A DNA stretch of 64,000 nt from a bacterium (GCA_024711295.1 JANJTB010000002.1:145804-209803), one strand, 5' to 3'. Shown: positions 3,487 through 63,402, counted from the first letter of the stretch. Program-made: numbers and translations. Notes: a model not told the origin generated them from the sequence alone.

Positions 3487-3665
3487 ATTATTTTCCTGTT
3501 TTTAGAATAATTATAAACTCTAATTTAGCTAAAAAAAAAGTAACAACAAAAAAAAATTGACATATCTCTGTTTTATTAACTTATTTGATTATGAACATAA
3601 AATCTAATTAATAATTTTAGTGTTATATTTGTACTCTATTAAAATTGCAAAATTTACTATTTTTT

Positions 3666-5375
3666 ATGATAAAATCTCTTTTGGTAAAAGATTTTGCCCT
3701 GATAACAGAAAGTTATATAAACTTTGACAAAGGCTTAAATGTTATCCTGGGAGAAACAGGCTCCGGTAAGTCAATGCTTATTGATGCCTTGTCTGCAGTA
3801 TTTGGAGAAAGAGTTTCAGCAATGATAGTAAGGAATGGAGCAGTTAAATCAGTAATTGAAGTTGAAATTTCAATCACAAACGATGAAATCATTGATATTC
3901 TTAAACAGAATGAAATTGAGTTATTCGATGATCACATGATAATCAGACGTGAAATTTCTGCAAAGTCGGGTTCAAGAAATTTTGTTAATGACACCCCTGT
4001 TAACATGAACATCCTAAAGCAAATTGGTGAAAAGTTCATTGATTTCCATGGTCAACACGAACATCAGTCATTATTGAACAGTACATTTCATGCAGAAATT
4101 TTTGATAAAAGTGCTAAAATTAGCGACTTAATTGAGCAATATTCACAATTATACTACAATCTGAAGAATAATGTTGAAGAATTGAATACACTAATCAACA
4201 GCGAGAAAATTCTAAGGGAGAAATACGAATACTCAAGGTTCAAGCTTGAAGAAATATTAAAAGTTAATCCGGTAGAAAATGAAGATTTGAATTTGGAAAA
4301 AGAGCTCAATTTTCTTGAAAATTCTGAAATTCTTTACACTCTCAGCAATCAGCTATATCACGAGCTATATGATGATGAAAATTCTATATTCAACAAACTC
4401 TCTTTATCACTTAAAACAATTTCAAAACTTACCCAAATTGATACTTCATTTGATGAATATTTCAAAGAACTCGAAAGTGCTTTAATAATTATGCGTGAAG
4501 TCAGCTCCTTTACTAATGATTACTATTCGAACATTGAATTTAATCCTGAGAAAATTGAACAAATAAGATTAAGGTTACTTCAAATTAAATCACTTCAAAA
4601 GAAGTATGGTTCTGTGGGCGATATTATAAAACTTAAAGAGCAGTTGCAATCCGAACTGATTCTCATCGAAAAATTTGAGGAAAACAAAAATAAACTGATC
4701 AATGAAATTAACGAGCTAAAGAGGGCAATATTCGAAAAGGCACTGATAATAGAACAAAAACGTGTAGAATATTCCAAAGAGTTCTCAGGCAATATTGTTG
4801 AATCCCTTAATAACTTAGGAATTAATAATGCCACATTCGAGGTGAAGGTCGAAAGAAATATCGCTGATTTCAATGATACTACTGATTTTTCATATAATTA
4901 CAATGGCACAAATTATTCAATATTGCGAAATGGAATCAACAATATTGAATTTTTTATCTCCACAAATCTCGGAGAGTCACCTAAGCCATTGCAAAGCGTT
5001 GCATCCGGTGGTGAAGTATCCAGAATTATGTTGTCAATCAAAAATATTCTTGCTGATAAGGATAATATATCCTGCCTGGTATTTGATGAAATTGATACAG
5101 GAGTTTCAGGCAGAATTGCACAGATGGTTGGCAAATCAATGTCGGAACTGTCAAAATATCATCAAATAATTTCAATTTCACACTTACCGCAAATTGTTGC
5201 TTATGCAGATATGTGCATTTTAGTTGAGAAAATTGAAAATGCCGATTCCACTACTTCTTCTTCAAAAGTATTGAACGAAGAAGAGAAGATTCACGAGATT
5301 GCTAAATTAATCAGTGGTAGTCAGGTATCTGACGAAAGCTTAAGAAGTGCAGAACTATTAATAAACAACAAGTAA
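3666..5375 (+). CDS. recN: DNA repair protein RecN
   Basis: 'IKSLLVKDFALI...LNVILGETGSGKS' is the RecN N-terminus with a Walker A motif. Coiled-coil middle region and C-terminal signature region are present. The ORF track starts at a TTG at 3645. The ATG at 3666 fits the RecN N-terminal consensus better. Confidence 0.85.
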   Translation: MIKSLLVKDFALITESYINFDKGLNVILGETGSGKSMLIDALSAVFGERVSAMIVRNGAVKSVIEVEISITNDEIIDILKQNEIELFDDHMIIRREISAKSGSRNFVNDTPVNMNILKQIGEKFIDFHGQHEHQSLLNSTFHAEIFDKSAKISDLIEQYSQLYYNLKNNVEELNTLINSEKILREKYEYSRFKLEEILKVNPVENEDLNLEKELNFLENSEILYTLSNQLYHELYDDENSIFNKLSLSLKTISKLTQIDTSFDEYFKELESALIIMREVSSFTNDYYSNIEFNPEKIEQIRLRLLQIKSLQKKYGSVGDIIKLKEQLQSELILIEKFEENKNKLINEINELKRAIFEKALIIEQKRVEYSKEFSGNIVESLNNLGINNATFEVKVERNIADFNDTTDFSYNYNGTNYSILRNGINNIEFFISTNLGESPKPLQSVASGGEVSRIMLSIKNILADKDNISCLVFDEIDTGVSGRIAQMVGKSMSELSKYHQIISISHLPQIVAYADMCILVEKIENADSTTSSSKVLNEEEKIHEIAKLISGSQVSDESLRSAELLINNK

Positions 5376-6074: not shown

Positions 6075-6159
6075 ATAATACAGTTTACAAAAATAATACT
6101 TTTCTGTTAATTTACCAAGAAATTCTTATTTCTTAGCACATAACTCGCCTTTTTTCGAT

Positions 6160-6275: not shown

Positions 6276-6538
6276 TTTATTTATTGTTCTTTGGAAATAT
6301 AACTATGGCACAAAAAAAAGAGCCCGAAATAGCGGCCAACTAATTCGAGCTTTATAGGGTGCATTTATCATGAAAAAAATGCAATGAAAAAGACGCACCT
6401 GCCATACAAATATTATAAATCGTGTTGAAATAAATGTTAGCATCATTAATACGGCCGATTAATCTTTGCTCATTTATATTTTTCAACCGCTTGTTTTTCT
6501 TTTATTTTTTTTTAATTAACTTTTTAGAGGGTCTTATC

Positions 6539-6985
6539 ATGAAAAAGCTTTTAGCAATTCTCGTAGTTGCAATTCTAGCAACAACTTTCGCTATGTCACA
6601 ACACAATGCACCAGTAACTGCAAATGCAAATTTTGACATTGCAGTTATCCAACCCTTATCTTGGTCAAAAACTGCAGATGTTGATCTTGGTGCAGTAATA
6701 ACAGGCTTCGTAAAACCTGTAGTTGCAAACATTACTTTTACTTTACAAGGTGAGTTTCAGTACGGCAATACTCCATATAAAGTTGATATTACTAGTTCAG
6801 GTCCAGATCCTGTTGATGGAGTGGTTCTACATGGCACTTGGTCAGGAACAGGAACAGTAGATCTTGATGCTGCTGGTCAGGCTTCCGTAGTTTATACCAC
6901 AATCCATGTAGATGCAACAGCTGCTACATCAAATGGGTCAAAAGTATTCACAATTAGTGTTAATGCTAAATATAACAATTTATAA
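6539..6985 (+). CDS. Small secreted pilin-like protein, paralog 1 (conserved mature N-terminus QHNxPV)
   Basis: There is a GAGGG Shine-Dalgarno sequence 8 nt upstream. The signal peptide is 'MKKLLAILVVAILATTFAMS'. The protein is paralogous to the next two genes. Confidence 0.65.
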   Translation: MKKLLAILVVAILATTFAMSQHNAPVTANANFDIAVIQPLSWSKTADVDLGAVITGFVKPVVANITFTLQGEFQYGNTPYKVDITSSGPDPVDGVVLHGTWSGTGTVDLDAAGQASVVYTTIHVDATAATSNGSKVFTISVNAKYNNL

Positions 6986-7013
6986 TTAAATAACAACTTA
7001 TGGAGTATTTATC

Positions 7014-7523
7014 ATGAAAAAGTTTATCATATTAATCGTTTTCTTAGCCGCTTTAGGCACATTATTTTCTCAGCACAACAATCCGGTTCAATCAGATAAC
7101 GGCAATTTAACAGCAAAAGTAATCAAACCTTTTTATGTAATTGATATAACTGATAATATACCTAATGGTAATCCAGTACCTGAAGTAATTAAAGGTCAAA
7201 AAAGGGTTTTGACTGCACCTGAAGGTATCTTGCTTTTTGAAATGGGACGTGAAGCACCTTATATAGTTGACTTTGAACTAAAAATTCCTCAACCTGTTGA
7301 TGGAGTAACGATCGTTGGATGGTGGGAATTTTATGAAGAAGCACCTCCTATGACATTTTCATTCCCCGGTTATCCACTTAACCAATATTGGTACTGGGAG
7401 AATTCTACAAGAGATAAAGGATGGATAACATTCAAAATTTCTGAGATTGATGCAAGAAATGCCAATTCTACTGGAATCAAGACTTTTACTGTCAATGCAA
7501 AAGGTCAATACAGAAGCCTTTAA
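7014..7523 (+). CDS. Small secreted pilin-like protein, paralog 2
   Basis: Signal peptide followed by 'SQHNNPV...LTAKVIKP', which is shared with paralogs 1 and 3. A GGAG Shine-Dalgarno sequence lies upstream. The C-terminal 'TFTVNAK' resembles the paralog 1 ending 'FTISVNAK'. Confidence 0.65.
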   Translation: MKKFIILIVFLAALGTLFSQHNNPVQSDNGNLTAKVIKPFYVIDITDNIPNGNPVPEVIKGQKRVLTAPEGILLFEMGREAPYIVDFELKIPQPVDGVTIVGWWEFYEEAPPMTFSFPGYPLNQYWYWENSTRDKGWITFKISEIDARNANSTGIKTFTVNAKGQYRSL

Positions 7524-7556
7524 TTTCATAAAACAAAACTATTTAAAGGTATAGTT

Positions 7557-8045
7557 ATGAAAAATTTAATAAGCTGCATGTTCGTACTTTTGATTTCAGG
7601 AGTTGTGTTTGCACAAACACATAATCCTGTGGTCGGAGATGAAGGAACAATGACAGCAAAAGTTATAACGCCACTGACTGTCTTCGAGCCATCTGAATTA
7701 ATGGAATACGTTGTAATCCAAAATCAAACTAAAACTCTAACAGCTGACAATAAGTTTGAGTTCAGACTTGAAGGTGAGGCAGGAATGTTTGTTAACGTCA
7801 ACTTTATCGGACCCAATGCAGTTGTACAGCCACCAATTGGTAGCATACCAGTGCTAAGTGGTGCTTGGTTCGGACCTGGTAATGTTCCTGTAACAGGCAA
7901 TAGTGGTACATACCAAATTCCTGATTTTCCTGCTGAGTCATTTTTTGATGTATTTTTTGAGTTGAATACAATAAATGCAACAGGAGCTGACTTAGGTATA
8001 GTAACATACGAACTTGGAATTGAATATTCTTATCAAGGTATGTAA
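7557..8045 (+). CDS. Small secreted pilin-like protein, paralog 3
   Basis: Signal peptide followed by 'AQTHNPVVGDEGTMTAKVITP', which is paralogous to the two preceding genes. Confidence 0.65.
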   Translation: MKNLISCMFVLLISGVVFAQTHNPVVGDEGTMTAKVITPLTVFEPSELMEYVVIQNQTKTLTADNKFEFRLEGEAGMFVNVNFIGPNAVVQPPIGSIPVLSGAWFGPGNVPVTGNSGTYQIPDFPAESFFDVFFELNTINATGADLGIVTYELGIEYSYQGM

Positions 8046-8061
8046 AATTATAATATTTATA

Positions 8062-8091
8062 AAAAGCACCCATAGAAATATGGGTGCTTTT
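8062..8091 (+). terminator. Intrinsic terminator or attenuator after the three pilin-like genes (AAAAGCACCCA-tagaaata-TGGGTGCTTTT)
   Basis: An 11-bp stem followed by a T-run is read directly. It sits between the subunit genes and the downstream assembly genes. Confidence 0.65.
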
Positions 8092-8099
8092 CAATAAAA

Positions 8100-8549
8100 A
8101 TGAAAAAAACAAAGGTAATATTAACTATAATTTTGATTTCCATCTTCTGGACCGGTAATTTAAGCTATGGCATTGAAGATACCGATAATCCAATTGAAGT
8201 ATTCGCATATTATGATTTAAACATCGGAACAATACCCATAGGAATGAAGAAAGTTTTCGAGAGTGACGAACAAATAATCAAGTTTGTCATCAAGTGCAAA
8301 AAAGACAGATTGATTAGAATTACAAAGATAAATGAAATAGGAAATGAATTTTTGATTATAGATGCAGACTGGAAAGCAGGTCCATTTACAGGTTACGAAA
8401 TCCCATTTAGCGGACTTGGCATTTACAGGAGCGAGCAGGATATATTTTTATTAACAATTAAAATCAAATCAATAGAAGTGAAAAGCTACACACAATCCGG
8501 CAAATACCAAATATCACCGAAGATTACTGTTGATTACGCAGATTTATAA
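8100..8549 (+). CDS. Small secreted protein of 149 aa; it could be a minor subunit or adaptor
   Basis: The signal peptide is 'MKKTKVILTIILISIFWTGNLSYG'. It is not similar to the three pilin-like paralogs. Confidence 0.45.
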   Translation: MKKTKVILTIILISIFWTGNLSYGIEDTDNPIEVFAYYDLNIGTIPIGMKKVFESDEQIIKFVIKCKKDRLIRITKINEIGNEFLIIDADWKAGPFTGYEIPFSGLGIYRSEQDIFLLTIKIKSIEVKSYTQSGKYQISPKITVDYADL

Positions 8550-8598
8550 CTGCTTAGGAAAATAACCATACTTATTTTTTTGTTAGGAGTAAACAAAC

Positions 8599-9432
8599 AT
8601 GAAAAAACTTACAATATTAACATTGCTGATAATAATGCTTACCCAGTTTGATTTGCTTTCGCAGGTAGGGATTTATCCACAGGCAGTTTTCTTGAATCAG
8701 AAAAATAGGGCAAGTAATCTTAAAGTACTAAATATGACTAATGAAACAAAAGAAATAATTCTTGACCTAAAGTTTGGATATCCTGATTATGACTCTCTGG
8801 GCAACTATTCTCTGGTTTACGGCGACACATTGCCCGGCGCTAAGTGGTCGGCTGTACCCTTTGTCAGAATGTTTCCCAAAAGATTACTTCTCAAGGCAAA
8901 TGAGGAACAAGTTGTTAAGTTCATGTTAGGCAATATGGGGAATGTACCTGATGGTACTTATTTTGGAAGAATCCATGTTCTTTCAAAAAATCCACCTGAA
9001 GAAATTGATACAACCTATACAGAATCAATTACAGCAAAAATTGACATACATTTTACACTTATTTCTGCATTGATTGTTGACAAAGGCAAAACTTACTGTG
9101 ATATAAGTGTTAAGCCGATGGGAACATTCTCAGATTCAAACATGGTCAATTTCTTAGTGAATGTAAATAAAGATGGTAATGCTCCATTTTTGGGTACAAC
9201 TGAAATGAAAGTATATGATTCTATGGGTAAACTTGTGGCACAAAGCAAGGACTTAACACCGTTCTATTTTAGTGGTACAAGATCTTTCAGATTCGATAAG
9301 AAATTATTTTCGAATGGTCGTTACAACGTCGAGCTTACAATGTCAAACGAGCACAAGGACGTTCCTGACGATTTCAAAGTAGCAATTAAGCCTGTAAAAG
9401 AAACATTCTCTGTTGATTTAGATGGTATATGA
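8599..9432 (+). CDS. Periplasmic PapD-like fimbrial chaperone candidate
   Basis: Signal peptide present. The mature N-terminus 'GIYPQAVFLNQKNRASNLKVLNMTNETKEIILDL' follows the 'I.P.r.if.......sl.v.N' pattern of pilus chaperones. At 277 aa the size is typical. The assignment rests on motif memory only. Confidence 0.4.
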   Translation: MKKLTILTLLIIMLTQFDLLSQVGIYPQAVFLNQKNRASNLKVLNMTNETKEIILDLKFGYPDYDSLGNYSLVYGDTLPGAKWSAVPFVRMFPKRLLLKANEEQVVKFMLGNMGNVPDGTYFGRIHVLSKNPPEEIDTTYTESITAKIDIHFTLISALIVDKGKTYCDISVKPMGTFSDSNMVNFLVNVNKDGNAPFLGTTEMKVYDSMGKLVAQSKDLTPFYFSGTRSFRFDKKLFSNGRYNVELTMSNEHKDVPDDFKVAIKPVKETFSVDLDGI

Positions 9433-21472: not shown

Positions 21473-21586
21473 TATAATTATTTACGTTGTTAATAAAAAA
21501 GTTAAAAATAAATAAAATAATTATAATCATATATTGTCTTTACTACTGTAGTCTTATTTTTTCAAATTATTATGGAGTTTTATAAC

Positions 21587-21910
21587 ATGAAATCAATCAA
21601 AATTCTTGCAATAGCATTAGGTTTGTTGTTTTCTTTATCAGTTTACAGCGGCTATGCCTGCGATAAGCACAAAACATCAGCTAAGTCTGAATGCTCAGTT
21701 GACATGAAGAAAACTAGTACTGCCGATGCTAAATCATGCTGCACTACTGACAAGAAAACTGCTTCTAAATCAGAATGCTGCACTACTGACAAAAAGACTG
21801 CTTCTAAATCAGAATGCTGCACTACTACTAAAAAAAGCACTAAATTAGAAGCTAAAAATGAAGGCACCAAAGATGTAAAGACTGCAGAAGTTAATCCTAT
21901 TAACAACTAA
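21587..21910 (+). CDS. Small secreted Cys-rich protein containing three tandem 13-aa repeats (TDKKTASKSECCT)
   Basis: Signal peptide present. A GGAG Shine-Dalgarno sequence lies 9 nt upstream. The DNA carries 39-nt tandem repeats at 21737..21840. Confidence 0.55.
   Translation: MKSIKILAIALGLLFSLSVYSGYACDKHKTSAKSECSVDMKKTSTADAKSCCTTDKKTASKSECCTTDKKTASKSECCTTTKKSTKLEAKNEGTKDVKTAEVNPINN
21737..21840 (+). repeat. 39-nt tandem repeat, about 2.6 copies, inside a coding region (TGCTGCACTACTGACAAGAAAACTGCTTCTAAATCAGAA)
   Basis: Read directly. Copies 1 and 2 differ at 3 positions. There is a partial third copy and a degenerate copy upstream. Confidence 0.8.
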
Positions 21911-23049: not shown

Positions 23050-24750
23050 ATGAATAGTTTTAGATTTGTAACCGGCATTTTAGTTGTTTTTCTACTCATT
23101 ATTTCTACTTTAGCAGCAGATGATCACAATTGTGAAGATTGTACCAATAAGTGCGGTACTTCAATTCTGCTGAATAATCATGCAACCAAAGAGCAGTTGT
23201 TAAGAACCATCAGATTAGATGCTAGCGGCTTACCGCTTTTGGGTCATAAATTTGCTGTCTCACCCACTAATATATTCAAAATTCATTACGACACATCTGG
23301 TGTTCATGCACCCAATTTGACTGATCTTAACCAAAACGGAATACCCGATTTTGTAGATTCTGTTGCATACTACTTTGATTTTGTATATGATATTTATATA
23401 AATGAACTTGGCTATCGCAGCCCCTATCCTGATAATAATCAAAGGGGTTCAGACCATTATGATGTTTATTTGGGGGATGTAGGTAACAGTGACGATGCAA
23501 ATGTACAACTTTATTCCGAAGGCGGAACTTACGGATTTACTGATTATACCAGTAAAGATGTAATAGCTACTTCACCTTTTATGAGAATGTACAGCTATAT
23601 AGTGATTGACAATGACTTCGCTGTTACTGATAGTGTAAGGCCATTAAAGAGTAAGCCTTATGCAGCATTTAAATATCCCGGAATACCTTCCTTGAAGGTT
23701 ACAGTAGCACATGAGTTTTATCATGCAATACAGTTTATGTACGGAATAAGCCAGCCGGCAGCAAGTACTATTATGGAAATGACAGCTACTGCAGTTGAAA
23801 GGTATTTTTTTGCAGATGTACCCGATTACATCAAATATGTGAGGCGATTGTTCAATAATCCTTCTAGTATGCCGTTCGGAATGGATGATGCCTACACCGG
23901 TTATTCTCATTCAGTATATAATCAGTTTTTGATCGAGAAATACGGAATAGAAATACTCCGATTGTTATGGGAGAATGTAGCTCAGGGTATCGAAGTTTAC
24001 AAGGCATTGGATAATGCATTAATCTTTTATGGCTCATCATTGCCTAATTCTTGGTGTGAATTTTTGGAGTGGGCATATTTTACCGGTGACCGATCAGGCG
24101 ACAAAAGCAATTTTTCCAACTCTGAAGAGTTACCTACAATTATTCCTTTTTCTGATATACTGTTCGAAGCACCTTCAAAGAGTTTATCGGGCAGACTCTC
24201 CCCTATTGAGTTTAGATTATTGAGGATGGCATTCCCTGGTATAGGCGAAATCAGTGATGATACACTTGATGTGATGCTGGGTAACATTGATATTGCAAAC
24301 GCATCTAAGCAGCTGGATGTTTCCAGAAGTTATTTCTGGCAGGTTGCTAATTCGGAATTTACAAACAGTAAAATTATAGAGGGTACTAATTATTGGTATT
24401 TCCTTGAAACAGATACAAATTTCTTATGTTCATTCCGCAATTTAAGTAAGGGTGGAGCGAATTATGAGATTGATTACGCTTATCCAAGTCCTTTCAGATT
24501 AAGCCAAGACAGTTACATTTTATTCCCTGCACCATCAGATACCGAATTATACAAAAAGGTTAGTCTGGTGCTCTATAACAGCGATATGACTCCAATTTAC
24601 AACGGTATAATTCAGGTAACATCCAACAACAACAAATTGGTTGTAAGATTAGATGACTTGCCTAAAAACCTTACAAGTGGTGTTTATATCTTCGGAGTTC
24701 ATAATGGCGATAAAATTAAACTTGGTAAACTAGCTGTAATAAACGAATAA
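23050..24750 (+). CDS. Secreted HEXXH zinc-metallopeptidase-like protein with a T9SS C-terminal domain
   Basis: Signal peptide. 'VAHEFYHAIQF' is an HEXXH motif. The C-terminal ~80 aa match the T9SS CTD pattern ('YPSPF...GVYIFGV...KLGKLAVI'). Confidence 0.45.
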   Translation: MNSFRFVTGILVVFLLIISTLAADDHNCEDCTNKCGTSILLNNHATKEQLLRTIRLDASGLPLLGHKFAVSPTNIFKIHYDTSGVHAPNLTDLNQNGIPDFVDSVAYYFDFVYDIYINELGYRSPYPDNNQRGSDHYDVYLGDVGNSDDANVQLYSEGGTYGFTDYTSKDVIATSPFMRMYSYIVIDNDFAVTDSVRPLKSKPYAAFKYPGIPSLKVTVAHEFYHAIQFMYGISQPAASTIMEMTATAVERYFFADVPDYIKYVRRLFNNPSSMPFGMDDAYTGYSHSVYNQFLIEKYGIEILRLLWENVAQGIEVYKALDNALIFYGSSLPNSWCEFLEWAYFTGDRSGDKSNFSNSEELPTIIPFSDILFEAPSKSLSGRLSPIEFRLLRMAFPGIGEISDDTLDVMLGNIDIANASKQLDVSRSYFWQVANSEFTNSKIIEGTNYWYFLETDTNFLCSFRNLSKGGANYEIDYAYPSPFRLSQDSYILFPAPSDTELYKKVSLVLYNSDMTPIYNGIIQVTSNNNKLVVRLDDLPKNLTSGVYIFGVHNGDKIKLGKLAVINE

Positions 24751-45982: not shown

Positions 45983-46792
45983 TTGAATATTTTTAACAAA
46001 CAAAAGTATAACATTATGAGCAATATTAATAAGTTTTTTTTAATCACAATAATAATTACAGCAAGTTTTTCATCGGTTTATGCGCAAGGTACAGCCGGCG
46101 ACAAAGCAAAGTACGAAACAAGATTCATTGTTGATATGCCTACAGCAGGAATGTTACCCAATAACTATTACTCGGTTACGGGTTATGTTTATCCTATGGG
46201 TGGTATTATGATTGCTGCTGATTTCGGGATATGGAACTTTGTTAACGCAGGATTAAGTTTTAGTGGAAATAATATTGTTGGTGATGCAGATGTAACATGG
46301 CAAAATTTACCCGGGATTAATATCAAAGCAAGAGCATTGGATGAAAAAGTGTACCTACCTGCACTGACATTTGGATTCAGTTCTCAGGGTTCAAGCAATT
46401 ATATGGGTGATAACAGATTTAAAACACATTCACCGGGTTTTTTTATGGCTTTGAGCAAAAATTTTCTTTGGGACTTGGGTAATCTGGCATTTCATACTGG
46501 ACTAAACTACTCTTTAGAACCAAAACCCGAGTATTCATCTCCTAATGTTTATTTTGGTGCTGAGCAATCTATTGGAGATTATTTTGCTGTTAACGGAGAG
46601 TTTAACCTTCAGCTTGATGAGCAAGAAAATGGATTTTATTCAAAGAGAGGCTTATTCAATTTATCATTAAGAGGATCGATTGCAAATGGAATAACTGCAG
46701 AAATCAAACTCAGAGACTTATTTAACCATGCAAGATATTCTGAAGGTCCCGAGAGAATAATAGCACTTGAAGTTATTAAGGTTTTGAAGTAG
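45983..46792 (+). CDS. Hypothetical outer-membrane protein
   Basis: There is an internal signal peptide ('MSNINKFFLITIIITASFSSVYAQG'), so the likely start is 46016. The sequence is Gly/aromatic-rich and beta-like. Confidence 0.4.
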   Translation: MNIFNKQKYNIMSNINKFFLITIIITASFSSVYAQGTAGDKAKYETRFIVDMPTAGMLPNNYYSVTGYVYPMGGIMIAADFGIWNFVNAGLSFSGNNIVGDADVTWQNLPGINIKARALDEKVYLPALTFGFSSQGSSNYMGDNRFKTHSPGFFMALSKNFLWDLGNLAFHTGLNYSLEPKPEYSSPNVYFGAEQSIGDYFAVNGEFNLQLDEQENGFYSKRGLFNLSLRGSIANGITAEIKLRDLFNHARYSEGPERIIALEVIKVLK

Positions 46793-50694: not shown

Positions 50695-51039
50695 TGTATC
50701 CTCTTATGAATAGATATATTAAATTCATATCTTAAAAGATTTCAAAATTAACGTTTTATTTCGAAATAGACAAAAAATTGATTTTTTTTCTGAATAATCA
50801 AACATTTGCCGCTAATCAGAAAAAAAATATTATTTATATTCCCATTTCAAAAAACGTAAATATCAATTCATAAATTCGATAAAATAGTTGAATAATACAA
50901 ATTAATGACGTTGTTTTATACGAAAAGTTTCAGATTATTTCGTTTAATTTTAAATAAATCTATAAATACATTATTGAAGATGTTTTTTTTACTTATACTT
51001 CAAATATTTGAAATATTTTTTACAAACAAACGAATTAAA

Positions 51040-56517: not shown

Positions 56518-58656
56518 ATGAAGAAAATATTATTATTACTTACATTCATAATTTTTACCGGTCAGACATTTTCTCAGAATATTGAAGATAAACCTATTAT
56601 TTATGTTGGCGGATATGTCGGTTATCTGCTAAATTTTCACAATGCTGACTTTAACAGGTTAAGGGGTTATCCAAATTGCTGTCCCCAATTCACAGATGGC
56701 AGCGGTTCGAGCCCTGCAGTTGGCATATTGCTGGAGTATCCTCTTAATCCTCAATGGAGAGCAGGCCTTAGATTTGGAATCGCAGGGCTGAGCGGTGATT
56801 TGCAAAGAGAGCAGAAAATCGGTAATACCGAAATTGTAAGAGCTGATGGTTTCGACAATAATGAAATTGCTGATGCGCTATCAAACTACGAAATTAACTC
56901 CAATATTCAAATTATTGGTATAGAACCTTTCGTAAATTATTATCCAATTGATAATTTAAATGTAAATGCAGGTTTCAGAATCGGTATTATGAATAACTCT
57001 ACTTTCGATCAATCCGAAAGACTAATTACACCGACAAATGTTGTTTTTACAGAAACAGGTACCAGAGCTCGAAACGAAGCCAGAAATCAGGAAATTCCTG
57101 AGACGAACACACTTCAATTTCACCCTTTTATAGGCATTGGATACGACATCAAAATATTTAAAAATGCATCTTTTACTCCTGAAGCAAAATTCTATGTGCC
57201 CCTTAGCAATATTTCTGAGGAGAATTGGAGTGTTAATCAATTATATTTTGGTGCTTCATTAAAATTCCCGATAATGCCTTCTAAAGAAGTCAAAACCATT
57301 AAAAAAATTGAATACCAGAGAGATACTGTTATTAACCAGATTGCAGGTCTTAAAGATAAGGAACTTAAGCTGCTGACGAGTAGAGAAGAATTGAAAAGCA
57401 AACAAGTGGATGATGCAACGATTGTAGAGACGAAAACAATTTTTGAGTCATACCAGCTGAATATTCCACGAGATGCCAAATTCAACGAAAGTTTGGTCAT
57501 TACCGGACTAAACCGTGATGGAACTCGTCAGGCAGATCCTTCAATTATTATTGAAGAAGTCGAAACAGAAGAGAGATTCCCACTTTTACCTTATGTATTT
57601 TTTAGAGAGGGTGATTCTCAGTTAGACAAAACATCTATGAATTTGTTAACTAAATCGAACATTGATAAATTTAATCCTGATAAATTAGATTGGGAAACCC
57701 TTAAAATTTATTCAAATTTATTGAATATTATAGGTCATAGATTATCTAAGTCAAAATCATCAATTACACTAACCGGTACAAACAATAACTTGCCTAAAGA
57801 ACTTGGAGTACCAAACTTATCTAAAAACAGAGCTGAGGCAGTAAAGAATTACCTGGTTGATGTATGGGGGATCGCACCCGGAAGAATCAGCATCCAAAGC
57901 AGAAACTTACCCGCAAAGCCCGCAAATAATGATAGAAGCGACGGTAGAGAAGAGAATCAGAGAGTAGAAATTTCGTCATCAGATATAGCAATTATTGCCC
58001 CTCTTGATATGAAAGATATTGTCAGGACAGCGAATCCTCCAATCATAGAGATTCGTCCGGATTTATGGTCAGAGGTTGGCATTGACAAATGGGAAATTAA
58101 CGTGTCTCAGAAAGGACAGTTACTCCGAAACTATTCAGGTGTTGGCAATGGTAACAACAACAGTTGGGATATAGAGGACGAACCTATTCCTTCACTTGAA
58201 GAACCAATTTTAGTAAAACTCGACTATCAGGATAAATCAGGCAACAAAAGAACTATCGAAAAGAATCTCAAAATCAGCCAGTTGACAATAAAGAAAAAGA
58301 GGTTCGAGCTGAAAGATGACAAGAGAATCGAAAGATTTTCTCTGATATTATTTGATTACGACAAGTCAGAGCTTACCGAGCAGCAAAAGAAGCTGCTTCA
58401 GGATATTAAATCTAAGATACAACCTAATTCTAAAGTTATTATTTCAGGTTTTGCAGATAGGACAGGTGAAGAAGCTTACAATAAGGAACTTTCTGCAAGA
58501 CGTAATGCTGAAGTACAAAAAATTCTTAAAGTATCGGATTCGCAACTTGTAATGCAAAATGTTGGAAGTTCAGAATTGCTTTATGACAACAGCAGCCCTG
58601 AAGGCAGATCTTATTGCAGAACCGTTAAAGTATCTATCGAAACTCCTGTTAAATAA
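56518..58656 (+). CDS. OmpA-family outer-membrane protein (N-terminal beta-barrel plus two OmpA-like C-terminal regions)
   Basis: Signal peptide. The ~240-aa barrel-like N-terminus is followed by 'SKNRAEAVKNYL' and 'GFADRTGEEAYNKELSARRNAEV', both OmpA_C-like. Confidence 0.6.
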   Translation: MKKILLLLTFIIFTGQTFSQNIEDKPIIYVGGYVGYLLNFHNADFNRLRGYPNCCPQFTDGSGSSPAVGILLEYPLNPQWRAGLRFGIAGLSGDLQREQKIGNTEIVRADGFDNNEIADALSNYEINSNIQIIGIEPFVNYYPIDNLNVNAGFRIGIMNNSTFDQSERLITPTNVVFTETGTRARNEARNQEIPETNTLQFHPFIGIGYDIKIFKNASFTPEAKFYVPLSNISEENWSVNQLYFGASLKFPIMPSKEVKTIKKIEYQRDTVINQIAGLKDKELKLLTSREELKSKQVDDATIVETKTIFESYQLNIPRDAKFNESLVITGLNRDGTRQADPSIIIEEVETEERFPLLPYVFFREGDSQLDKTSMNLLTKSNIDKFNPDKLDWETLKIYSNLLNIIGHRLSKSKSSITLTGTNNNLPKELGVPNLSKNRAEAVKNYLVDVWGIAPGRISIQSRNLPAKPANNDRSDGREENQRVEISSSDIAIIAPLDMKDIVRTANPPIIEIRPDLWSEVGIDKWEINVSQKGQLLRNYSGVGNGNNNSWDIEDEPIPSLEEPILVKLDYQDKSGNKRTIEKNLKISQLTIKKKRFELKDDKRIERFSLILFDYDKSELTEQQKKLLQDIKSKIQPNSKVIISGFADRTGEEAYNKELSARRNAEVQKILKVSDSQLVMQNVGSSELLYDNSSPEGRSYCRTVKVSIETPVK

Positions 58657-58675
58657 TTGATTTTAACTTAAACAC

Positions 58676-58740
58676 AACCCCTTATTTTGCTAGTAATTTT
58701 AAATACTTGACGGCAAACTAAGGGGTTTGCCATTTATACA
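58676..58740 (+). terminator. Candidate terminator hairpins (GGCAAAC-taaggg-GTTTGCC, nested within AACCCCTTA...TAAGGGGTT)
   Basis: Read directly. The T-tract is weak. Confidence 0.3.
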
Positions 58741-58931
58741 AGTTCAATTATAACACTCTTAACTTAGATTATGACAATATTTTTATACTACTCAATTTTT
58801 TTAAATAAAAAATTGTTATCATGAAATATCTAAGAGATAATAATTGTTGCACATATAAATAATTTTCATTATTTTGAATTTTAAAATATTATTATTCCCA
58901 AAACCATTTTTTACTTTGGTAAATACTTAAT

Positions 58932-59600
58932 ATGGATGAAGTACCTTTACTATGTTTGGTAATTGAAGACCAGCAGATGGTTGCGAATCTTTTCAAAAAG
59001 TATCTCGACCAGCTAAAAGTATTTAAAAAAGTTGACCTTGCCTATAACAGTGATTCAGCATTAGATTATGTTTTGAATTTTGACTATGAAATAACTTTTA
59101 TAGATATTTTTTTAGCTGACTATAATGGTATAGATTTAGCTAACAAAATTCTCTCTATCAAGCCAAAAAGCAAAATCATATTTTGCTCAGGAATTCAAAG
59201 CAGTAAAATAATCAACGCTTGCCTTAAGATTGGTGCCAGAGGTTATATCAGCAAGGGAGCAGATGTAAGTGAAATACAGGAAGCTGTATTTAAGGTACTG
59301 AGCGGCTCACAGTTCATTTGCCAAAAATCACTTCAAATATTGATTTCAGATAAAGAATCCAATTCACTTGAATACAGACTTTCATCTAATGATGTTAACC
59401 TAACTGAGCGAGAGCAAGAAGTCCTTGATCTGTTGATGAATGAATATTCTGTCCCTGAAATTGCCAACGCACTTTTCATTAGCTCCAGAACCGTTGAAAC
59501 ACATAAAAAACACATTCTTGAAAAGTATGGTGTTAAAACTATGGTTGGGTTGATGAAGAAAATCTCTACGAATAAGAATAAATCCCACATACTGAATTAA
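58932..59600 (+). CDS. LuxR/NarL-family response regulator (REC domain plus HTH), orphan
   Basis: The REC domain has the phospho-acceptor Asp in 'FIDIFLAD' and Lys in 'YISKG'. The C-terminal 'LTEREQEVLDLL...ISSRTVETHKKHILEKYG' is a LuxR helix-turn-helix. Confidence 0.75.
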   Translation: MDEVPLLCLVIEDQQMVANLFKKYLDQLKVFKKVDLAYNSDSALDYVLNFDYEITFIDIFLADYNGIDLANKILSIKPKSKIIFCSGIQSSKIINACLKIGARGYISKGADVSEIQEAVFKVLSGSQFICQKSLQILISDKESNSLEYRLSSNDVNLTEREQEVLDLLMNEYSVPEIANALFISSRTVETHKKHILEKYGVKTMVGLMKKISTNKNKSHILN

Positions 59601-59633
59601 TCTGCTGAATTTACCCAATACAATTTGTGACTA

Positions 59634-59665
59634 ATATCCGTAAATTTGCGGATATATATCCGTAA
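59634..59665. promoter_or_regulatory. Dyad operator-like element ATATCCG-N8-CGGATAT followed by a third direct ATATCCGTAA copy
   Basis: Read directly. It lies 30 bp after the stop of the response-regulator gene and upstream of the lipoprotein gene. Confidence 0.4.
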
Positions 59666-59726
59666 TTCCACTTATTTATATCTTATCAGTAATTCATGGT
59701 ATTGTGTAATCACTGTGTTTATCATA

Positions 59727-59776
59727 CTTTTGCATATTGATATTATGGTGCAATTAATATCAATCAATATGCAAAA
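59727..59776. promoter_or_regulatory. Inverted repeat TTTTGCATATTGATAT-N14-ATATCAATCAATATGCAAAA
   Basis: Read directly. The TTTTGCAT motif recurs at 59842. Confidence 0.4.
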
Positions 59777-59899
59777 TCCCATTATACAATTTGTGAAAAA
59801 TCAGTATATTTACTTAATTTATTTTGCTCAACTAAACCTACTTTTGCATTGTACTAAATTACCGAAAATTAATTTTTCAATTATCATACAGGGTGTATT

Positions 59900-60922
59900 A
59901 TGAAGAACATAGTTCAAAAAATCTCAATATTAGCAATTTTTATTGCTATTCTCATCGGCTGTAGTGAAAACAGCAATGTAACTTCACCAAGCAGCAAAGG
60001 TTTATCACAAGAATACGGCAATGATACAAAATATGTAGTATCATTAGTTCAGGACCCATATCAGGATACTGATGGTAACTGGGTTTGGGAATGGCAGGTT
60101 GTAAATACTGCTCCTGGAAATGGACTAAATGGAACACAACAAGCTTTAAGCCACCTTGATTTGATTTTTGGACTCGAAGAATGTGCAGGAAATTGGTCAA
60201 ATGTAGTTTCAGCAGGTGTAAAAAATTATGGAGCAACAGCTTGGACAGATTTTACTCCTACTTATCAGGAAGATATGTCATTGCGTAATAGCGGTGATTG
60301 TTACAGAGACCCTGTTCTTAAATTTTCAGTAACAACCAATGGCTCAAATGCATCATATTTCAGATTAGTTCTTAATGACGAATTTGAAGTAGATGAAACT
60401 TCTGGTGGTTTAATTATGAAATATGCTAACAAATGCTCAATAATATCTTTCCCTGGTATCGGTTGCCCTCCTGAAGATTTTGGTATTGAAGAAATTTGTT
60501 ATTATAATTCTTCTGAGACAGCATGGAGTGCAGGCACAAGATTTAATACTAAGGGAAATTGGGCAACTTATAGCACTTACACAGGTGGAACAAAAACTTA
60601 TGATTTGTATGCGGGACAAAGCATACTTGTAGGTAGTGTAACAGTTGAGCCGGCTATAGGCGGTGTTAATGTAACATACAGTCTAAATGGTACATGGGGA
60701 TTAAGCGAATATCATTTACATTTAGCAACTTCAGTATCTGGAATCCCACAGGCTAATAATAAGAATCCTATACCAGGTCAGTTTAAGTACAAGGGATCAT
60801 ATGAATTAGATCCAGATGACATTGACTCCACTTATCCGAATACAGTTACTGTATTTGTGCCTTGGTCTGGAAGCGCAATTGTTGCTGCCCATGCAGTTGT
60901 ACAAGAAAGAATTTGTGAATAA
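59900..60922 (+). CDS. Hypothetical secreted lipoprotein
   Basis: 'ILIGCSEN' is a lipobox. It is flanked by the two response-regulator genes. Confidence 0.45.
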   Translation: MKNIVQKISILAIFIAILIGCSENSNVTSPSSKGLSQEYGNDTKYVVSLVQDPYQDTDGNWVWEWQVVNTAPGNGLNGTQQALSHLDLIFGLEECAGNWSNVVSAGVKNYGATAWTDFTPTYQEDMSLRNSGDCYRDPVLKFSVTTNGSNASYFRLVLNDEFEVDETSGGLIMKYANKCSIISFPGIGCPPEDFGIEEICYYNSSETAWSAGTRFNTKGNWATYSTYTGGTKTYDLYAGQSILVGSVTVEPAIGGVNVTYSLNGTWGLSEYHLHLATSVSGIPQANNKNPIPGQFKYKGSYELDPDDIDSTYPNTVTVFVPWSGSAIVAAHAVVQERICE

Positions 60923-60953
60923 TCTATTGTTCAGATAAAAAATGATACAAAAA

Positions 60954-60982
60954 GGCTGCTATTCAATAGCAGCCTTTTTTTT
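60954..60982. terminator. Bidirectional terminator (GGCTGCTATT-c-AATAGCAGCC followed by T8)
   Basis: Read directly. It overlaps the stop codon of the minus-strand response-regulator gene. Confidence 0.65.
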
Positions 60983-61715
60983 AACCTACGTTTTTCATCA
61001 TCAGATCTCTAGCCAGCTTTCGCATCTGAGTTAGGTTTTCGAGACCTAGCTTTGCGTAAATATTCTTACGGTGTGTACTTACAGTAAATATACTTATCTT
61101 CAATTTGTCGGCAATTTCTTTTGTTGAACTATTGTTGGCAATCATCTCCATAATCTCTATCTCCCTGTCTGTAAGGAGCTCTTCAATCTTTGTCAGGTTT
61201 TTGCTACCGATTGAATTTATATCTTGAGAAGTGAAATACGAAAGTTTATTTGCGGAACTACTGCTATCGTCTAATTTTAAAATGGCAAACTCATGCAAAT
61301 CATCATAAAGAACATTAATAACTCTCTGATGGAAATATTTATTTCCTTTGATAACTGTTTTTATTGAGTCAATCAACACATCTTTTGTTACGTCCTTGAA
61401 CTGATAACCATCAGCACCATAAGCAAGTGCTTTATACACGGTTTCCTTATCGTCGCTAATAGATAGGAAAATCAATTTTGTGTTTGGGAAATCATTCTTA
61501 ATTATTCTAAGAGCATCAAATCCGTCTTTCTCTGGCATGACAATATCGCATAATACAATATCAATGTCGTGGTTCTCGAGTACATCAATTGCCTCATCAA
61601 CTGAGAACGCAGTAAAAATCTCACAACCGGGTGAACAATCTGTCAGAATTGCCTTTGTACCCAGTGCCGAAAGTTGAAAATCGTCAATAATTAAAAGTTT
61701 TATATTATCTTTCAT
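60981..61715 (-). CDS. LuxR/NarL-family response regulator, orphan
   Basis: 'LLIIDDFQL...DIVLCDIVMP' is the REC domain. The C-terminal 'LTDREIEIMEMIANNSSTKEIADKLKISIFTVSTHRKNIYAKLG' is a LuxR helix-turn-helix. Confidence 0.8.
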   Translation of the reverse strand: MKDNIKLLIIDDFQLSALGTKAILTDCSPGCEIFTAFSVDEAIDVLENHDIDIVLCDIVMPEKDGFDALRIIKNDFPNTKLIFLSISDDKETVYKALAYGADGYQFKDVTKDVLIDSIKTVIKGNKYFHQRVINVLYDDLHEFAILKLDDSSSSANKLSYFTSQDINSIGSKNLTKIEELLTDREIEIMEMIANNSSTKEIADKLKISIFTVSTHRKNIYAKLGLENLTQMRKLARDLMMKNVG

Positions 61716-61963
61716 TTCTAAATTTCCTATTTACGTATTATTTATTAATTCAAAAATAAGAAATATTTTTCAATTCACTACCTAATATTTATTTAAAAGT
61801 AGCTAATTAAATAAAATAATTACTTTTTTTTAATTTTAATTATTTTTTTCTTGCATATATAAAATTAATTACTTACTTTTGATTTGTGATTAGTTACTTA
61901 ATTATAATTTTTAAGTATTTAATTGGAATTTTTAACTAACTATAAATAGATTTGAGGTATATT

Positions 61964-63130
61964 ATGAAAAATTTGGTAATCATTTTCGCTGCTCTTTTAG
62001 GAGTAGCATTCATATTTACATCTTGCGAGCAATCAATAAATGCTCCTCTAACATCAACAAATGATTTAACAAAATCATATATAGTGTTATACGAAGATTC
62101 AGGTGATAAACTCCAAAGCATCAATTTTGATTCTAAACTTTCAGAAATATTATCAGTTCATAAAATTGACAGAAGCAGTGTAACATATATATACGACCAT
62201 ATTTTTACAGGTTTTGCAGCAAATTTGAGCGAAGCTCAGGTAAGCTCACTAAAATCAGATAAGAGAATTATTGAAATAGAAGAAGACCAAATATTTAACA
62301 TTCAGGATTTAACAAATGAAGATGAAAATAATCCTGATACACAAGCACAATCAACACCATGGGGTATAACTGCAGTTGGTGGCTCAATAGATGCAACAAG
62401 CAGCACAGGTATTGCATGGGTTGTTGATACAGGTATTGACCTGACACACTCTGACCTAAATGTAAATACAACACTTAGCAAAACATTTGTAACTTCAGGT
62501 CAGGACGCTTTATCTGCTAATGATTTGCACAGTCATGGTTCGCATGTAGCCGGTACAATCGCTGCCAAGAACAACACATCAGGTGTTGTAGGTGTATGCG
62601 CAGGCGCTGAATTAGTTGCAATCAAGGTTTTTGACTATACTGGAAAAGGGTCAAGTTCGACAATAATTGCAGGACTTAATTATATTTCAGCTAATCTTGT
62701 TAGCGGTAGAATTAATGTTGTTAACATGAGTTTGGGAGGCTCGGCATCAACGACATTGGATAATGCAGTAAAAGCATTAGCTGCAAAGGGTGTTTATATG
62801 GTGGTTGCAGCAGGCAACTCAGCAAAAAGCGCTACATTGTATTCACCTGCAAGAGTTGAAGCAACAAATGTATTTACAATATCAGCACACGATTCGAAAG
62901 GTGCGTTCGCAACATTTTCTAACTTTAATAATCCACCAGTTGATTTTGCAGCTCCAGGTGTAAGTATATACTCTACTTCAAAATCAGGCGGATATGCAAC
63001 AAAATCAGGAACTTCGATGGCAACTCCACATGTAGCTGGTATTATACTTGCAAATAACGGAACTGTAAACTGGTCAGGTAACGTTACAAAAGATAAAGAT
63101 TCAACACCTGACAAGAAAGCCAGAAGATAA
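61964..63130 (+). CDS. Secreted subtilisin-like serine protease (S8) with an N-terminal I9 inhibitor propeptide
   Basis: Lipobox 'FTSC'. Catalytic triad: 'VVDTGID', 'HGSHVAGTIAA', 'GTSMATPHVAG'. A GAGGT Shine-Dalgarno sequence precedes the ATG at 61964. Confidence 0.8.
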   Translation: MKNLVIIFAALLGVAFIFTSCEQSINAPLTSTNDLTKSYIVLYEDSGDKLQSINFDSKLSEILSVHKIDRSSVTYIYDHIFTGFAANLSEAQVSSLKSDKRIIEIEEDQIFNIQDLTNEDENNPDTQAQSTPWGITAVGGSIDATSSTGIAWVVDTGIDLTHSDLNVNTTLSKTFVTSGQDALSANDLHSHGSHVAGTIAAKNNTSGVVGVCAGAELVAIKVFDYTGKGSSSTIIAGLNYISANLVSGRINVVNMSLGGSASTTLDNAVKALAAKGVYMVVAAGNSAKSATLYSPARVEATNVFTISAHDSKGAFATFSNFNNPPVDFAAPGVSIYSTSKSGGYATKSGTSMATPHVAGIILANNGTVNWSGNVTKDKDSTPDKKARR

Positions 63131-63347: not shown

Positions 63348-63402
63348 GTCAAATGAGATTACAAAAGTAATACATTTTTCGAAACTGTGCAAGAAAAAAA
63401 TA

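Follow-up and report, generated by a model that had tools for sequence, protein, structure and literature searches.

Genes at the locus

The locus lies in the genome of an uncultured Kapaibacterium, from which we analysed a window of 64 kb (the whole stretch of DNA, along which all positions are counted). As the sequence-only reading had proposed, two genes encoding NarL/LuxR-type response regulators, here termed RR1 and RR2, stand around a lipoprotein gene (Table 1). The lipoprotein and RR2 genes are convergent, and RR2 is divergent from a gene encoding a subtilisin-like (S8) protease. Both regulators match the models of the receiver and of the GerE DNA-binding domain: RR1 matches Response_reg at 1.1e-18 (PF00072, 67.9 bits) and GerE at 8.9e-15 (PF00196, 54.5 bits), and RR2 matches the same models at 4e-22 (78.9 bits) and 1.3e-17 (63.6 bits), the cut-offs being 30.2 and 23.5 bits, respectively. 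The phospho-acceptor residues are intact in RR1, where E12/D13, D57, a serine and K108 align with D13/D14, D59, S87 and K109 of NarL, and in RR2, whose D11, D12, D57, S85 and K107 are shared without exception by 13 orthologues.

Table 1. Features of the regulator locus, in order of position along the window
Feature	Position	Strand	Remarks
RR1 gene (222 aa)	58932..59600	+	NarL/LuxR-type response regulator, REC + GerE; kinase-less
Direct repeat ATACAATTTGTGA, copy 1	59618..59630	+	about -119 to -107 from predicted P1 start; one variable position (59624) in haplotype B
Candidate operator, three 11-bp units alternating in orientation (ATATCCGTAAA / TTTGCGGATAT / ATATCCGTAAT)	59634..59666		33 bp
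Degenerate fourth copy TATCAGTAATTC (compare TATCCGTAATTC at 59657)	59684..59695	+	92% identity; invariant between haplotypes
Predicted lipoprotein promoter P1, TTG-N20-TACTTTTG	59702..59732	+	Bacteroidota sigma-A type; predicted start about 59737
Inverted repeat TTTTGCATATTGAT (59728-59741) / ATCAATATGCAAAA (59763-59776)	59728..59776		21-nt spacer
Direct repeat ATACAATTTGTGA, copy 2	59784..59796	+	predicted 5' UTR; invariant between haplotypes
Second TACTTTTG octamer	59839..59846	+	-7-like, no TTG at the right distance; missed by full-pattern scan
Lipoprotein gene (340 aa, Cys21)	59900..60922	+	lipobox after signal peptide
Bidirectional intrinsic terminator, lipoprotein/RR2	60949..60979		15-bp perfect inverted repeat, T runs on both sides
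RR2 gene (244 aa)	60981..61715	-	NarL/LuxR-type response regulator, REC + GerE; kinase-less
CTACCTAAT, RR2-proximal copy of conserved RR2-S8 spacer box	61778..61786	+	unchanged between strain haplotypes
Predicted S8 promoter, TTG-N20-TACTTTTG	61851..61881	+	predicted start about 61886; most conserved block of RR2-S8 spacer
Palindrome TACTTAA-N9-TTAAGTA	61895..61917		just 3' of S8 -7 box, about +10 to +32
I9+S8 subtilisin-like protease gene (388 aa)	61964..63130	+	Peptidase_S8 3.7e-37; Inhibitor_I9 1.1e-7

With the NarL/FixJ family (NarL, VraR, DesR, LiaR), RR1 and RR2 share an N-terminal receiver with its acidic pocket, Asp, Ser/Thr and Lys, and a C-terminal four-helix DNA-binding domain of the GerE/LuxR type; among solved structures, VraR and NarL are their best relatives. 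Since both score far under the cut-offs of the NCBIfam equivalog models, they fall outside any named subfamily. They are only 28% identical to each other and differ in their recognition helices, and the linker of RR2, at about 45 residues, is unusually long. A search of the literature on response regulators of Kapabacteria returned nothing relevant.

The two proteins differ from the family in having no adjacent histidine kinase, adjacency being the only arrangement assessed. A domain scan of the 64 kb found no HisKA or HATPase_c match in ORFs of at least 199 aa, and for ORFs of that size we can thus confirm that the window contains no histidine kinase. None is listed in the gene table of the contig (L001) for 10 kb beyond the window, nor in the neighbourhoods of seven RR2 orthologues. 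Because the phospho-acceptor pocket is kept in both regulators, both presumably receive phosphate from kinases whose genes lie elsewhere.

The lipoprotein ORF begins with MKNIVQKISILAIFIAILIGC, comprising a signal peptide and a lipobox ending at Cys21; residues 18-21 (L-I-G-C), which follow a hydrophobic helix, fit the pattern [LVI][ASTVI][GAS]C by inspection. A C-terminal beta-sandwich is predicted with confidence by structure modelling. The terminator between this gene and RR2 folds at -18.7 kcal/mol (z = -6.5). The protease also has a lipobox-like N-terminus (FTSC), and its gene most likely starts at the ATG at 61964 rather than at the TTG at 61952.

An array of alternating 11-bp units upstream of the lipoprotein gene

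The spacer between RR1 and the lipoprotein gene measures 299 bp (59601-59899), in agreement with the roughly 300 bp given earlier. Within it, the sequence-only reading had described an ATATCCG-N8-CGGATAT dyad and a further direct copy, and all of these elements are present: ATATCCG lies at 59634, CGGATAT at 59649, and ATATCCGTAA at both 59634 and 59656. The dyad is a 22-bp palindrome in which 20 of 22 bases are symmetric (10 of 11 pairs), intergenic and 48-99 nt upstream of the predicted promoter P1. It forms part of the 33-bp candidate operator, whose 11-bp units can be written ATATCCGYAAA and whose cores (CCG, CGG and CCG) are spaced 11 bp apart.

Palindromes of 22 bp with at least 10 of 11 pairs number 3 in the window, compared with 1.27 expected, and the three-unit array occurs once in the window and in none of 300 shuffled (Markov-1) versions of it. 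Lone ATATCCG or CGGATAT heptamers occur 14 times elsewhere in the window, nearly all in coding sequence, as against about 8 by a rough estimate from composition, and no regulon can be deduced from them there.

We compared the spacer among ten strain contigs, which carry two or three spacer haplotypes and show no rearrangement. Haplotypes A and B differ at 19 of the 299 positions (6.4%), compared with 0.2-0.7% in the flanking genes. Positions 59625-59665 are nevertheless invariant in all ten contigs, and the sole change in the array, a T>A at 59666 in haplotype B, gives the third unit the sequence of the first. The 81-nt block from 59625 to 59705 carries one change where about five are expected (P ~0.04, within strains of one species only). 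The ATATCCG element pointed out earlier is thus non-random by the shuffles and unchanged between the strain haplotypes. Contig scans with RR1, the lipoprotein and the RR2 alignment gave no orthologous spacer outside the species, so conservation of the array is seen in two or three strain haplotypes only, and footprinting beyond the strain level is impossible.

Operators of NarL-type regulators, such as the NarL heptamer and the DesR and LiaR sites, consist of short inverted or direct half-sites upstream of a promoter and serve dimers that oligomerise once phosphorylated. The candidate array likewise has inverted and direct short half-sites upstream of a predicted promoter. It is unlike the 7-2-7 operator of NarL (inverted TACYYMT, 2 bp apart), however, in its half-site (ATATCCGTAAA), its 7-8-7 geometry and its 11-bp period, with three units arranged forward-reverse-forward. 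The 22-bp palindrome also resembles lux-box-type operators of 18-22 bp in being intergenic and beside a gene for a LuxR-type HTH protein. In contrast to such operators, which lie at about -42, it is centred at about -93 from the predicted start and is accompanied by a third half-site; moreover, lux-box regulators bind an autoinducer, whereas RR1 and RR2 are receiver-domain proteins.

Predicted promoter and other repeats in the spacer

A scan for sigma-70 promoters (TTGACA/TATAAT) remained at background (25 versus 19.5+-4.5), and we therefore used the sigma-A consensus of Bacteroidota, TTG-N17-23-TAnnTTTG (PMC9723704; bioRxiv 10.1101/172254), whose -7 box lies at -12 to -5 (PMC9723704). The full pattern has 13 matches in the window, compared with 6.0+-2.3 expected, and 10 of the 13 fall in intergenic DNA, which makes up 7.4% of the window; two of these ten lie 15 nt upstream of tRNA-His and tRNA-Thr. 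P1 and the predicted S8 promoter both match the Bacteroidota/FCB type, and the TTG and the TACTTTTG octamer of P1 are present in both haplotypes. Our literature search found no start-site map for Kapaibacterium. Because P1 is predicted at 59702-59732, the array would lie at about -103 to -71 from its start, an activator-like position.

The octamer recurs at 59725, 59839 and 61874, the second of which is possibly a proximal promoter, with a start at about 59851. A direct repeat, TACTTTTGCAT, lies at 59725 and 59839, and this repeat, like the ATACAATTTGTGA pair at 59618 and 59784, had escaped the earlier reading; 13-mer repeats within 200 nt occur 0.65 times per window in shuffles. The spacer also contains two 9-mers resembling the conserved box of RR2 described below, at 59611 and 59810 (about 0.2 expected), which include TTACCCAAT (59611) and TACTTAA (59811); the match at 59611 is lost in haplotype B. 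At E <=1, Rfam gave nothing in the spacer, its only matches being terminator look-alikes.

An inverted repeat with arms of about 18 bp had also been reported. The repeat exists, but its perfect arms are 14 bp long and reach about 18 bp only with a 4-nt bulge. Its position, across the -7 box and the predicted start of P1, is repressor-like. With loops limited to 40 nt, the window has only two perfect 14-nt inverted repeats, this one and the lipoprotein terminator (0.00 in shuffles). Conservation of the repeat, on which the sequence-only reading had been staked beforehand, did not hold up: 4 of the 19 differences between A and B fall in the TTTTGCATATTGAT/ATCAATATGCAAAA arms, which are perfect only in haplotype A and 10/14 complementary in B. 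One contig (L005) has a paired arm change, 59741 T>A with 59763 A>T. The predicted RNA fold weakens from -16.1 kcal/mol in A to -9.0 in B (L002) and -6.2 in L005. As the repeat is intact in haplotype A only, it is at most an allele-specific element. We also considered an invertible promoter and rejected it: the arms are 21 nt apart, the orientation is the same in 10 of 10 contigs, and no recombinase is encoded among the scanned neighbours.

RR2 and the protease form a conserved pair

Orthologues of RR2 across Kapabacteria are 43-58% identical to it, with an invariant recognition helix (TVSTHRKN), and among strains its pN/pS is 0.04. A scan of contigs with the RR2 alignment gave matches of up to 34% over most of the protein, nominal values of 42-55% being restricted to short HTH segments. 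The divergent RR2-S8 pair is kept in five of seven other Kapabacteria contexts (L024, L025, L027, L029 and L031), in all five cases without RR1 or the lipoprotein. The adjoining S8 orthologues are 55-60% identical over their full length, and all have the ..SC[DE] motif. Since RR2 orthologues are divergent from orthologous I9+S8 genes in five lineages, the protease, which the sequence-only reading had named as a regulator target, is a credible target of RR2.

The spacers between the two genes are also conserved. Twelve 8-mers that are not AT-only are common to at least five of six spacers, compared with 0.03 in shuffles; ATTAGGTA is found in six of six and TTACCTAA in five of six orthologous spacers. 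At the predicted S8 promoter, CTTGCATA occurs in all six lineages and the -7 region is conserved. The palindrome TACTTAA-N9-TTAAGTA corresponds to TTACCTAAT-N-ATTAGGTAA of the other lineages; relative to these, its two arms carry mirrored changes, C>T in one and G>A in the other, and they are identical across strain haplotypes. Ahead of the S8 start codon stands a Shine-Dalgarno-like GAGGT, unlike the situation in typical Bacteroidota; three of the five orthologous loci (L024, L025 and L029) have it as well. The conserved TTACCTAAT/ATTAGGTAA box is unrelated to ATATCCG, a heptamer that neither the RR2-S8 spacer of the window nor that of any of the five other lineages contains.

RR1 and the lipoprotein are confined to the species

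In the collections searched, the best homologue of RR1 outside the species is 33% identical, and a scan of genome contigs returned only relatives at 20-33%. For the lipoprotein, the best such homologue is 34% identical, a scan of metagenome contigs gave no match, and the contexts of its three closest homologues contain neither a neighbouring response regulator nor an ATATCCG dyad. The pN/pS of RR1 among the strain contigs is 0.3-1.0 (from small counts), and in one contig (L005) codon 193 is a nonsense codon. RR1 thus looks species-specific and under relaxed or weak constraint. Because it is weakly constrained, and the lipoprotein stays identical where RR1 is cut at codon 193, RR1 may be dispensable for lipoprotein expression. 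No copy of ATATCCG lies upstream of RR1 itself.

Two proposed neighbouring regulator-target units

The sequence-only reading took the locus for a single compact regulatory module. The data support this in part at most, because RR2-S8 is an ancestral pair with a box of its own, whereas RR1 and the lipoprotein are confined to the species. We instead propose, with a probability of roughly 45%, that the locus consists of two regulator-target units that happen to be neighbours, the RR2-S8 unit being ancestral and the RR1-lipoprotein unit specific to the species. In the first unit, RR2 would bind TACYTAA boxes of the TTACCTAAT-N-ATTAGGTAA type and control the protease and itself, from a shared spacer that has a predicted protease promoter of the sigma-A type, a palindromic box directly following its -7 element, and further copies of the box near the RR2 start. 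In the second unit, the lipoprotein would be transcribed from P1, with a start at about 59737, and the three 11-bp half-sites, one helical turn apart, could accommodate two overlapping HTH dimers on one face of the DNA, so that the array would act as an upstream activator site. RR1 is most likely the protein that binds this candidate array, since it adjoins it and has a recognition helix that, in the alignment, differs from that of the whole RR2 family, whose conserved box is also different. Some observations count against this reading: a simple class I activator would not be expected to sit as far upstream as -93, the TACTTAA (59811) and TTACCCAAT (59611) elements leave room for input from RR2 into the lipoprotein spacer, the dyad can fold as an RNA hairpin, and RR1 lacks an ATATCCG site of its own.

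Those box-like elements would be readily explained if both regulators acted on the 299-bp spacer and the protease promoter, as a hetero-oligomer or in a cascade, to serve one regulon. The adjoining genes and the shared -7 octamer would also fit such integration, and there could be room for more than one dimer on three half-sites that alternate in orientation. Nevertheless, we regard it as unlikely, given that RR2-S8 lacks RR1 and the lipoprotein in five other lineages, that ATATCCG is missing from every RR2-S8 spacer compared, that the two regulators are so dissimilar, and that haplotype B loses the match at 59611. Orphan regulators often control distant genes, and tyrosine-recombinase core sites resemble the 7-8-7 geometry, with 7-bp arms and an 8-bp spacer. 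By analogy, the ATATCCG element might therefore be bound by an unrelated protein or be a recombinase core-type site, while both regulators act elsewhere; the absence of ATATCCG upstream of RR1, and the intact array and lipoprotein in the strain whose weakly constrained RR1 is cut, would agree with this. We consider this quite unlikely, as no recombinase or other transcription-factor domain is encoded among the scanned neighbours, the spacer is not rearranged in any of the ten contigs, and the 11-bp spacing of half-sites suits HTH dimers.

The dyad is placed 34 nt beyond the stop codon of RR1, a gene with no other terminator, and the predicted RNA fold of the dyad (-10.5 kcal/mol, z = -2.9; -11.6 to -13.3 in haplotype B) could be a 3' stem-loop by which the RR1 transcript is ended or stabilised. 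An intrinsic terminator is not indicated, as the stem is poor in G+C, with only three G-C pairs per 7-bp arm, is followed by ATATATCCG instead of a T run, and is missing from the terminator scan; genuine terminators at the locus are far stronger (-18.7 and -20.9 kcal/mol), that of the lipoprotein with a T run. A stem-loop also leaves the exact third copy and the 11-bp periodicity unexplained, and we judge it improbable that the dyad is such an element rather than an operator. We give equally little weight to the idea that the repeats are functionless by-products of local mutation or recombination, such as template-switch correction of quasi-palindromes. The spacer is indeed a hot spot of divergence, and the clustered arm changes of the 14-bp repeat, whose match falls from perfect to 10/14 between the haplotypes, and the paired change in L005 would be expected of such a process, but the three-unit array is kept amid the 19 differences, was never matched in the shuffles and is plausibly spaced from a promoter prediction that is well supported. 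Similarly improbable is a naturally polymorphic switch for a surface lipoprotein, in which a fixed platform of three half-sites would recruit an orphan regulator, possibly a mixed RR1/RR2 oligomer, to two core-promoter alleles, with or without a perfect 14-bp operator over the start, the lipoprotein coding sequence having been swept almost unchanged while RR1 decays in some strains.

Implications

The proposed two units would be ordinary regulator-target pairs, and the locus does not challenge the current view of two-component signalling. It does illustrate that two adjoining regulators need not form one module, since comparative context here split an old, conserved pair from a young, species-specific one. 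If confirmed, these operators and this promoter architecture would be the first candidates of their kind for orphan NarL-type regulators from Kapabacteria, which are uncultured and without genetics, and the box of the conserved RR2-S8 pair could be used for regulon prediction across Kapabacteria.

Gene layout and domain content

The window (G+C 34.8%) derives from an uncultured Candidatus Kapaibacterium. The encoded lipoprotein, present on 11 assembled contigs, matches MASR1M45_16930 of GCA_054685795.1 exactly. When region 58657-62000 was compared, Logan contigs L003 and L007 were identical to the window and the remaining contigs 98-99% identical.

Features of the response-regulator locus (window coordinates)
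Feature	Position	Strand	Remark
OmpA-family protein	56518-58656	+	
RR1	58932-59600	+	response regulator
IG1			299-bp spacer, RR1 to lipoprotein ORF
Three-unit array	59634-59666		candidate operator in IG1
P1 promoter match	59702-59732		only full match in IG1
Lipoprotein ORF	59900-60922	+	340 aa
Terminator	60949-60979		strong, bidirectional
RR2	60981-61715	-	response regulator
IG3			248-bp spacer, RR2 to protease
IG3 promoter match	61851-61881		full match, predicted for protease
IG3 palindrome	61895-61917		TACTTAA-N9-TTAAGTA
I9+S8 protease	61964-63130	+	

RR1 and RR2 both match Response_reg and GerE with scores well over the Pfam cut-offs, and can be aligned end to end with VraR and NarL. The RR1 residues E12/D13, D57, S and K108 are the counterparts of the NarL acidic pair, D59, S87 and K109. 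With just 28% identity between them, the two regulators are not the products of a recent duplication. Their recognition helices are unlike (RTVETHKKHILEKYG in RR1, FTVSTHRKNIYAKLG in RR2). The lipoprotein has an N-terminal hydrophobic helix and, after it, a standard lipobox, L-I-G-C (Cys21). A family search gave it no assignment; its C-terminal 140 residues are confidently modelled as a beta-sandwich whose structural neighbours are generic, adhesin-like only. The Pfam domains and the lipobox agree with the sequence-only reading that two response regulators flank a lipoprotein gene. Its claim that no histidine kinase lies within 64 kb also holds for ORFs of at least 199 aa: HisKA and HATPase_c were absent from a Pfam scan of all such ORFs in the window, and the 10 kb beyond the window end contained no kinase. 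Since the receiver pocket is intact in both regulators, they would be expected to be phosphorylated by kinases encoded elsewhere.

Elsewhere in the window, a 112-aa ORF (21572-21910) that comes just after a carbonic anhydrase gene contains 2.8 copies of a 39-nt tandem repeat (21729-21836; 89% match). The ORF product, with a signal peptide and recurrent Cys-rich CCTTDKKTASKSE units, may be a small secreted protein that binds metal. ORFs 23050-24750, 14010-15011, 8599-9432, 45983-46792 and 15648-16304 (566, 333, 277, 269 and 218 aa) had no Pfam match at E <= 0.001.

One conserved and one species-specific gene pair

RR2 orthologues in other Kapabacteria are 43-58% identical to RR2, with invariant phospho-acceptor residues and recognition helix (TVSTHRKN). 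Of seven independent neighbourhoods, five (L024, L025, L027, L029 and L031) have the orthologue divergent from an I9+S8 protease with 55-60% identity to that of the window and likewise a lipobox-like N-terminus; the other two represent a separate sub-lineage. No kinase was found in any of the seven. In L025, L027 and L029, the RR2 orthologue directly adjoins a cluster made up of four small ORFs, one ORF of 277 aa and an OmpA-domain protein of 1059 aa, which in the window (6434-12608) lies ~50 kb off, a synteny break.

Alignment of six RR2-S8 spacers revealed a conserved promoter (CTTGCATA at -33 and TTACTTAATTTTG at -7) and, immediately past the -7 box, a palindrome, TTACCTAAT-N-ATTAGGTAA, with ATTAGGTAA-like copies adjoining the RR2 start. 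Twelve 8-mers that are not AT-only are common to at least five of the six spacers, versus 0.03 in shuffles. Both arms of the window's palindrome are altered symmetrically relative to the other lineages, and IG3 also contains CTACCTAAT at 61778. The box elements are unchanged between strain haplotypes, with IG3 divergence at 4.8%. The box bears no relation to ATATCCG.

The best RR1 homologue among 5.8 billion proteins is 33% identical (20-33% for the best homologues in species-representative genomes), and the best lipoprotein homologue 34%; none of the three closest lipoprotein homologues has a regulator beside it. RR1 and the lipoprotein are species-specific. The proposal of one compact module is not supported by this comparison, in which the RR2-S8 pair is conserved elsewhere and the RR1-lipoprotein pair is not. 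The most economical reading is that the locus consists of two juxtaposed units, RR2-S8 and RR1-lipoprotein.

Promoters and repeats

In a scan of the window, the E. coli-type promoter consensus was at background level. The FCB-group consensus TTG-N19-21-TAnnTTTG had 13 matches versus 6.0+-2.3 expected, 10 of them in intergenic DNA, which makes up 7.4% of the window. Two of these full matches, 6088-6118 (-) and 63362-63392 (-), stop 15 nt short of tRNA-His and tRNA-Thr, which is good evidence that this Kapaibacterium uses Bacteroidota-type sigma-A promoters. The -7 box lies at -12 to -5 in Flavobacterium (PMC9723704), and the same promoter type is reported for Chlorobaculum (bioRxiv 10.1101/172254). 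With P1 as promoter, transcription is predicted to begin near 59737 and the 5′ UTR to measure ~163 nt. A second TACTTTTG (59839) is without a TTG at the proper distance. An SD-like GAGGT is found ahead of the S8 start codon in the window and in three of five orthologous loci (L024, L025 and L029).

In IG1, ATATCCG lies at 59634 and CGGATAT at 59649, ATATCCGTAA occurs at 59634 and 59656, and a second inverted repeat has its arms, TTTTGCATATTGAT and the complement, at 59728 and 59763 respectively. These positions are exactly those of the sequence-only reading, but the arms of the second repeat measure 14 bp, not ~18 bp. The array reads in full ATATCCGTAAA / TTTGCGGATAT / ATATCCGTAAT, three 11-bp units in forward-reverse-forward order, whose cores CCG/CGG/CCG are spaced exactly 11 bp, or one helical turn. 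The first two units together make up a 22-bp palindrome (10/11 pairs), a type found 3 times in 64 kb versus 1.27 expected; the three-unit arrangement occurs once in the window and never in 300 Markov-1 shuffles of it. Relative to the predicted P1 start, the array lies at ~-103 to -71, a degenerate fourth copy (TATCAGTAATTC, 59684) at ~-53 to -42, and the 14-bp inverted repeat over -9 to +5 and +27 to +40. Further direct repeats are ATACAATTTGTGA (59618 and 59784) and TACTTTTGCAT (59725 and 59839). The window has just two perfect inverted repeats of 14 nt with a short loop, one in IG1 and one at the lipoprotein terminator; because shuffles give 0.00, IG1 is dense in non-random repeats. A 22-bp palindrome at 50995-51016 (ATACTTCAAATATTTGAAATAT, 10/11 pairs), ~56 nt upstream of an arginase-family gene (51072), is another operator candidate.

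Variation among strains

Ten contigs carrying the locus were compared. The window, L001, L003, L004, L007 and L008 share IG1 haplotype A; L002, L006 and L009, plus the variant L005, have haplotype B. The haplotypes differ at 19/299 IG1 positions (6.4%), versus 0.7% in the RR1 gene and 0.2% in the lipoprotein gene. Positions 59625-59665 are unchanged, and 59666 T>A in haplotype B makes array unit 3 an exact copy of unit 1. The 81-nt block 59625-59705 has 1 change versus ~5 expected (P ~0.04), suggestive, though not decisive, of conservation. The P1 TTG and TACTTTTG are retained in both haplotypes.

The earlier proposal was to fall if its dyads were not conserved; at strain level the ATATCCG dyad is invariant, but the second repeat has four A/B differences within its arms, leaving 10/14 pairs in B, with predicted stability falling from -16.1 kcal/mol in A to -9.0 (L002) and -6.2 (L005). 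The second repeat is allele-specific. In L005, its innermost pair is changed on both sides (59741 T>A, 59763 A>T), so that the pair stays complementary amid degenerate positions elsewhere in the arms; either selection or mutation by template switching could account for this.

RR2 has a pS of 0.093, only 2 amino-acid changes and a pN/pS of 0.04; pN/pS for RR1 is 0.3-1.0 (small counts). The lipoprotein has zero amino-acid changes at a very low pS of 0.005-0.009. In L005 (SRR25252648), RR1 (3583-4251, equivalent to window 58932-59600) is interrupted in its recognition helix by a nonsense codon at position 193 and has 13 amino-acid changes; this could reflect genuine decay or faulty assembly. The lipoprotein downstream is identical. 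Across 58657-63130, divergence from L001-L010 is mosaic, with IG1 at 0% or 6.4% by strain, which points to a gene-specific sweep or to recombination where genes meet.

Interpretation

Of the two juxtaposed units, RR2-S8 would be the ancestral one, having a box of its own at and past the protease promoter. RR1-lipoprotein would be the young one, and its best candidate for an operator is the array of three half-sites lying upstream of P1. RR1 would be the nearest plausible binder of this array, as its recognition helix differs from that of RR2. Alternatively, an unrelated protein may bind the array, RR1 and RR2 may control the locus jointly, or the dyad may act as an RNA 3′ hairpin. Two other candidates, the dyad as a terminator and an invertible promoter, failed their defining tests.

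Compared with the first reading, two juxtaposed units divide the locus into a conserved and a species-specific part, the promoter type is identified, and one of the two repeats proves allele-specific. RR1 and RR2 are an ordinary though well-verified addition to the NarL/LuxR response-regulator family, with plausible operators, from a lineage that has been little studied.
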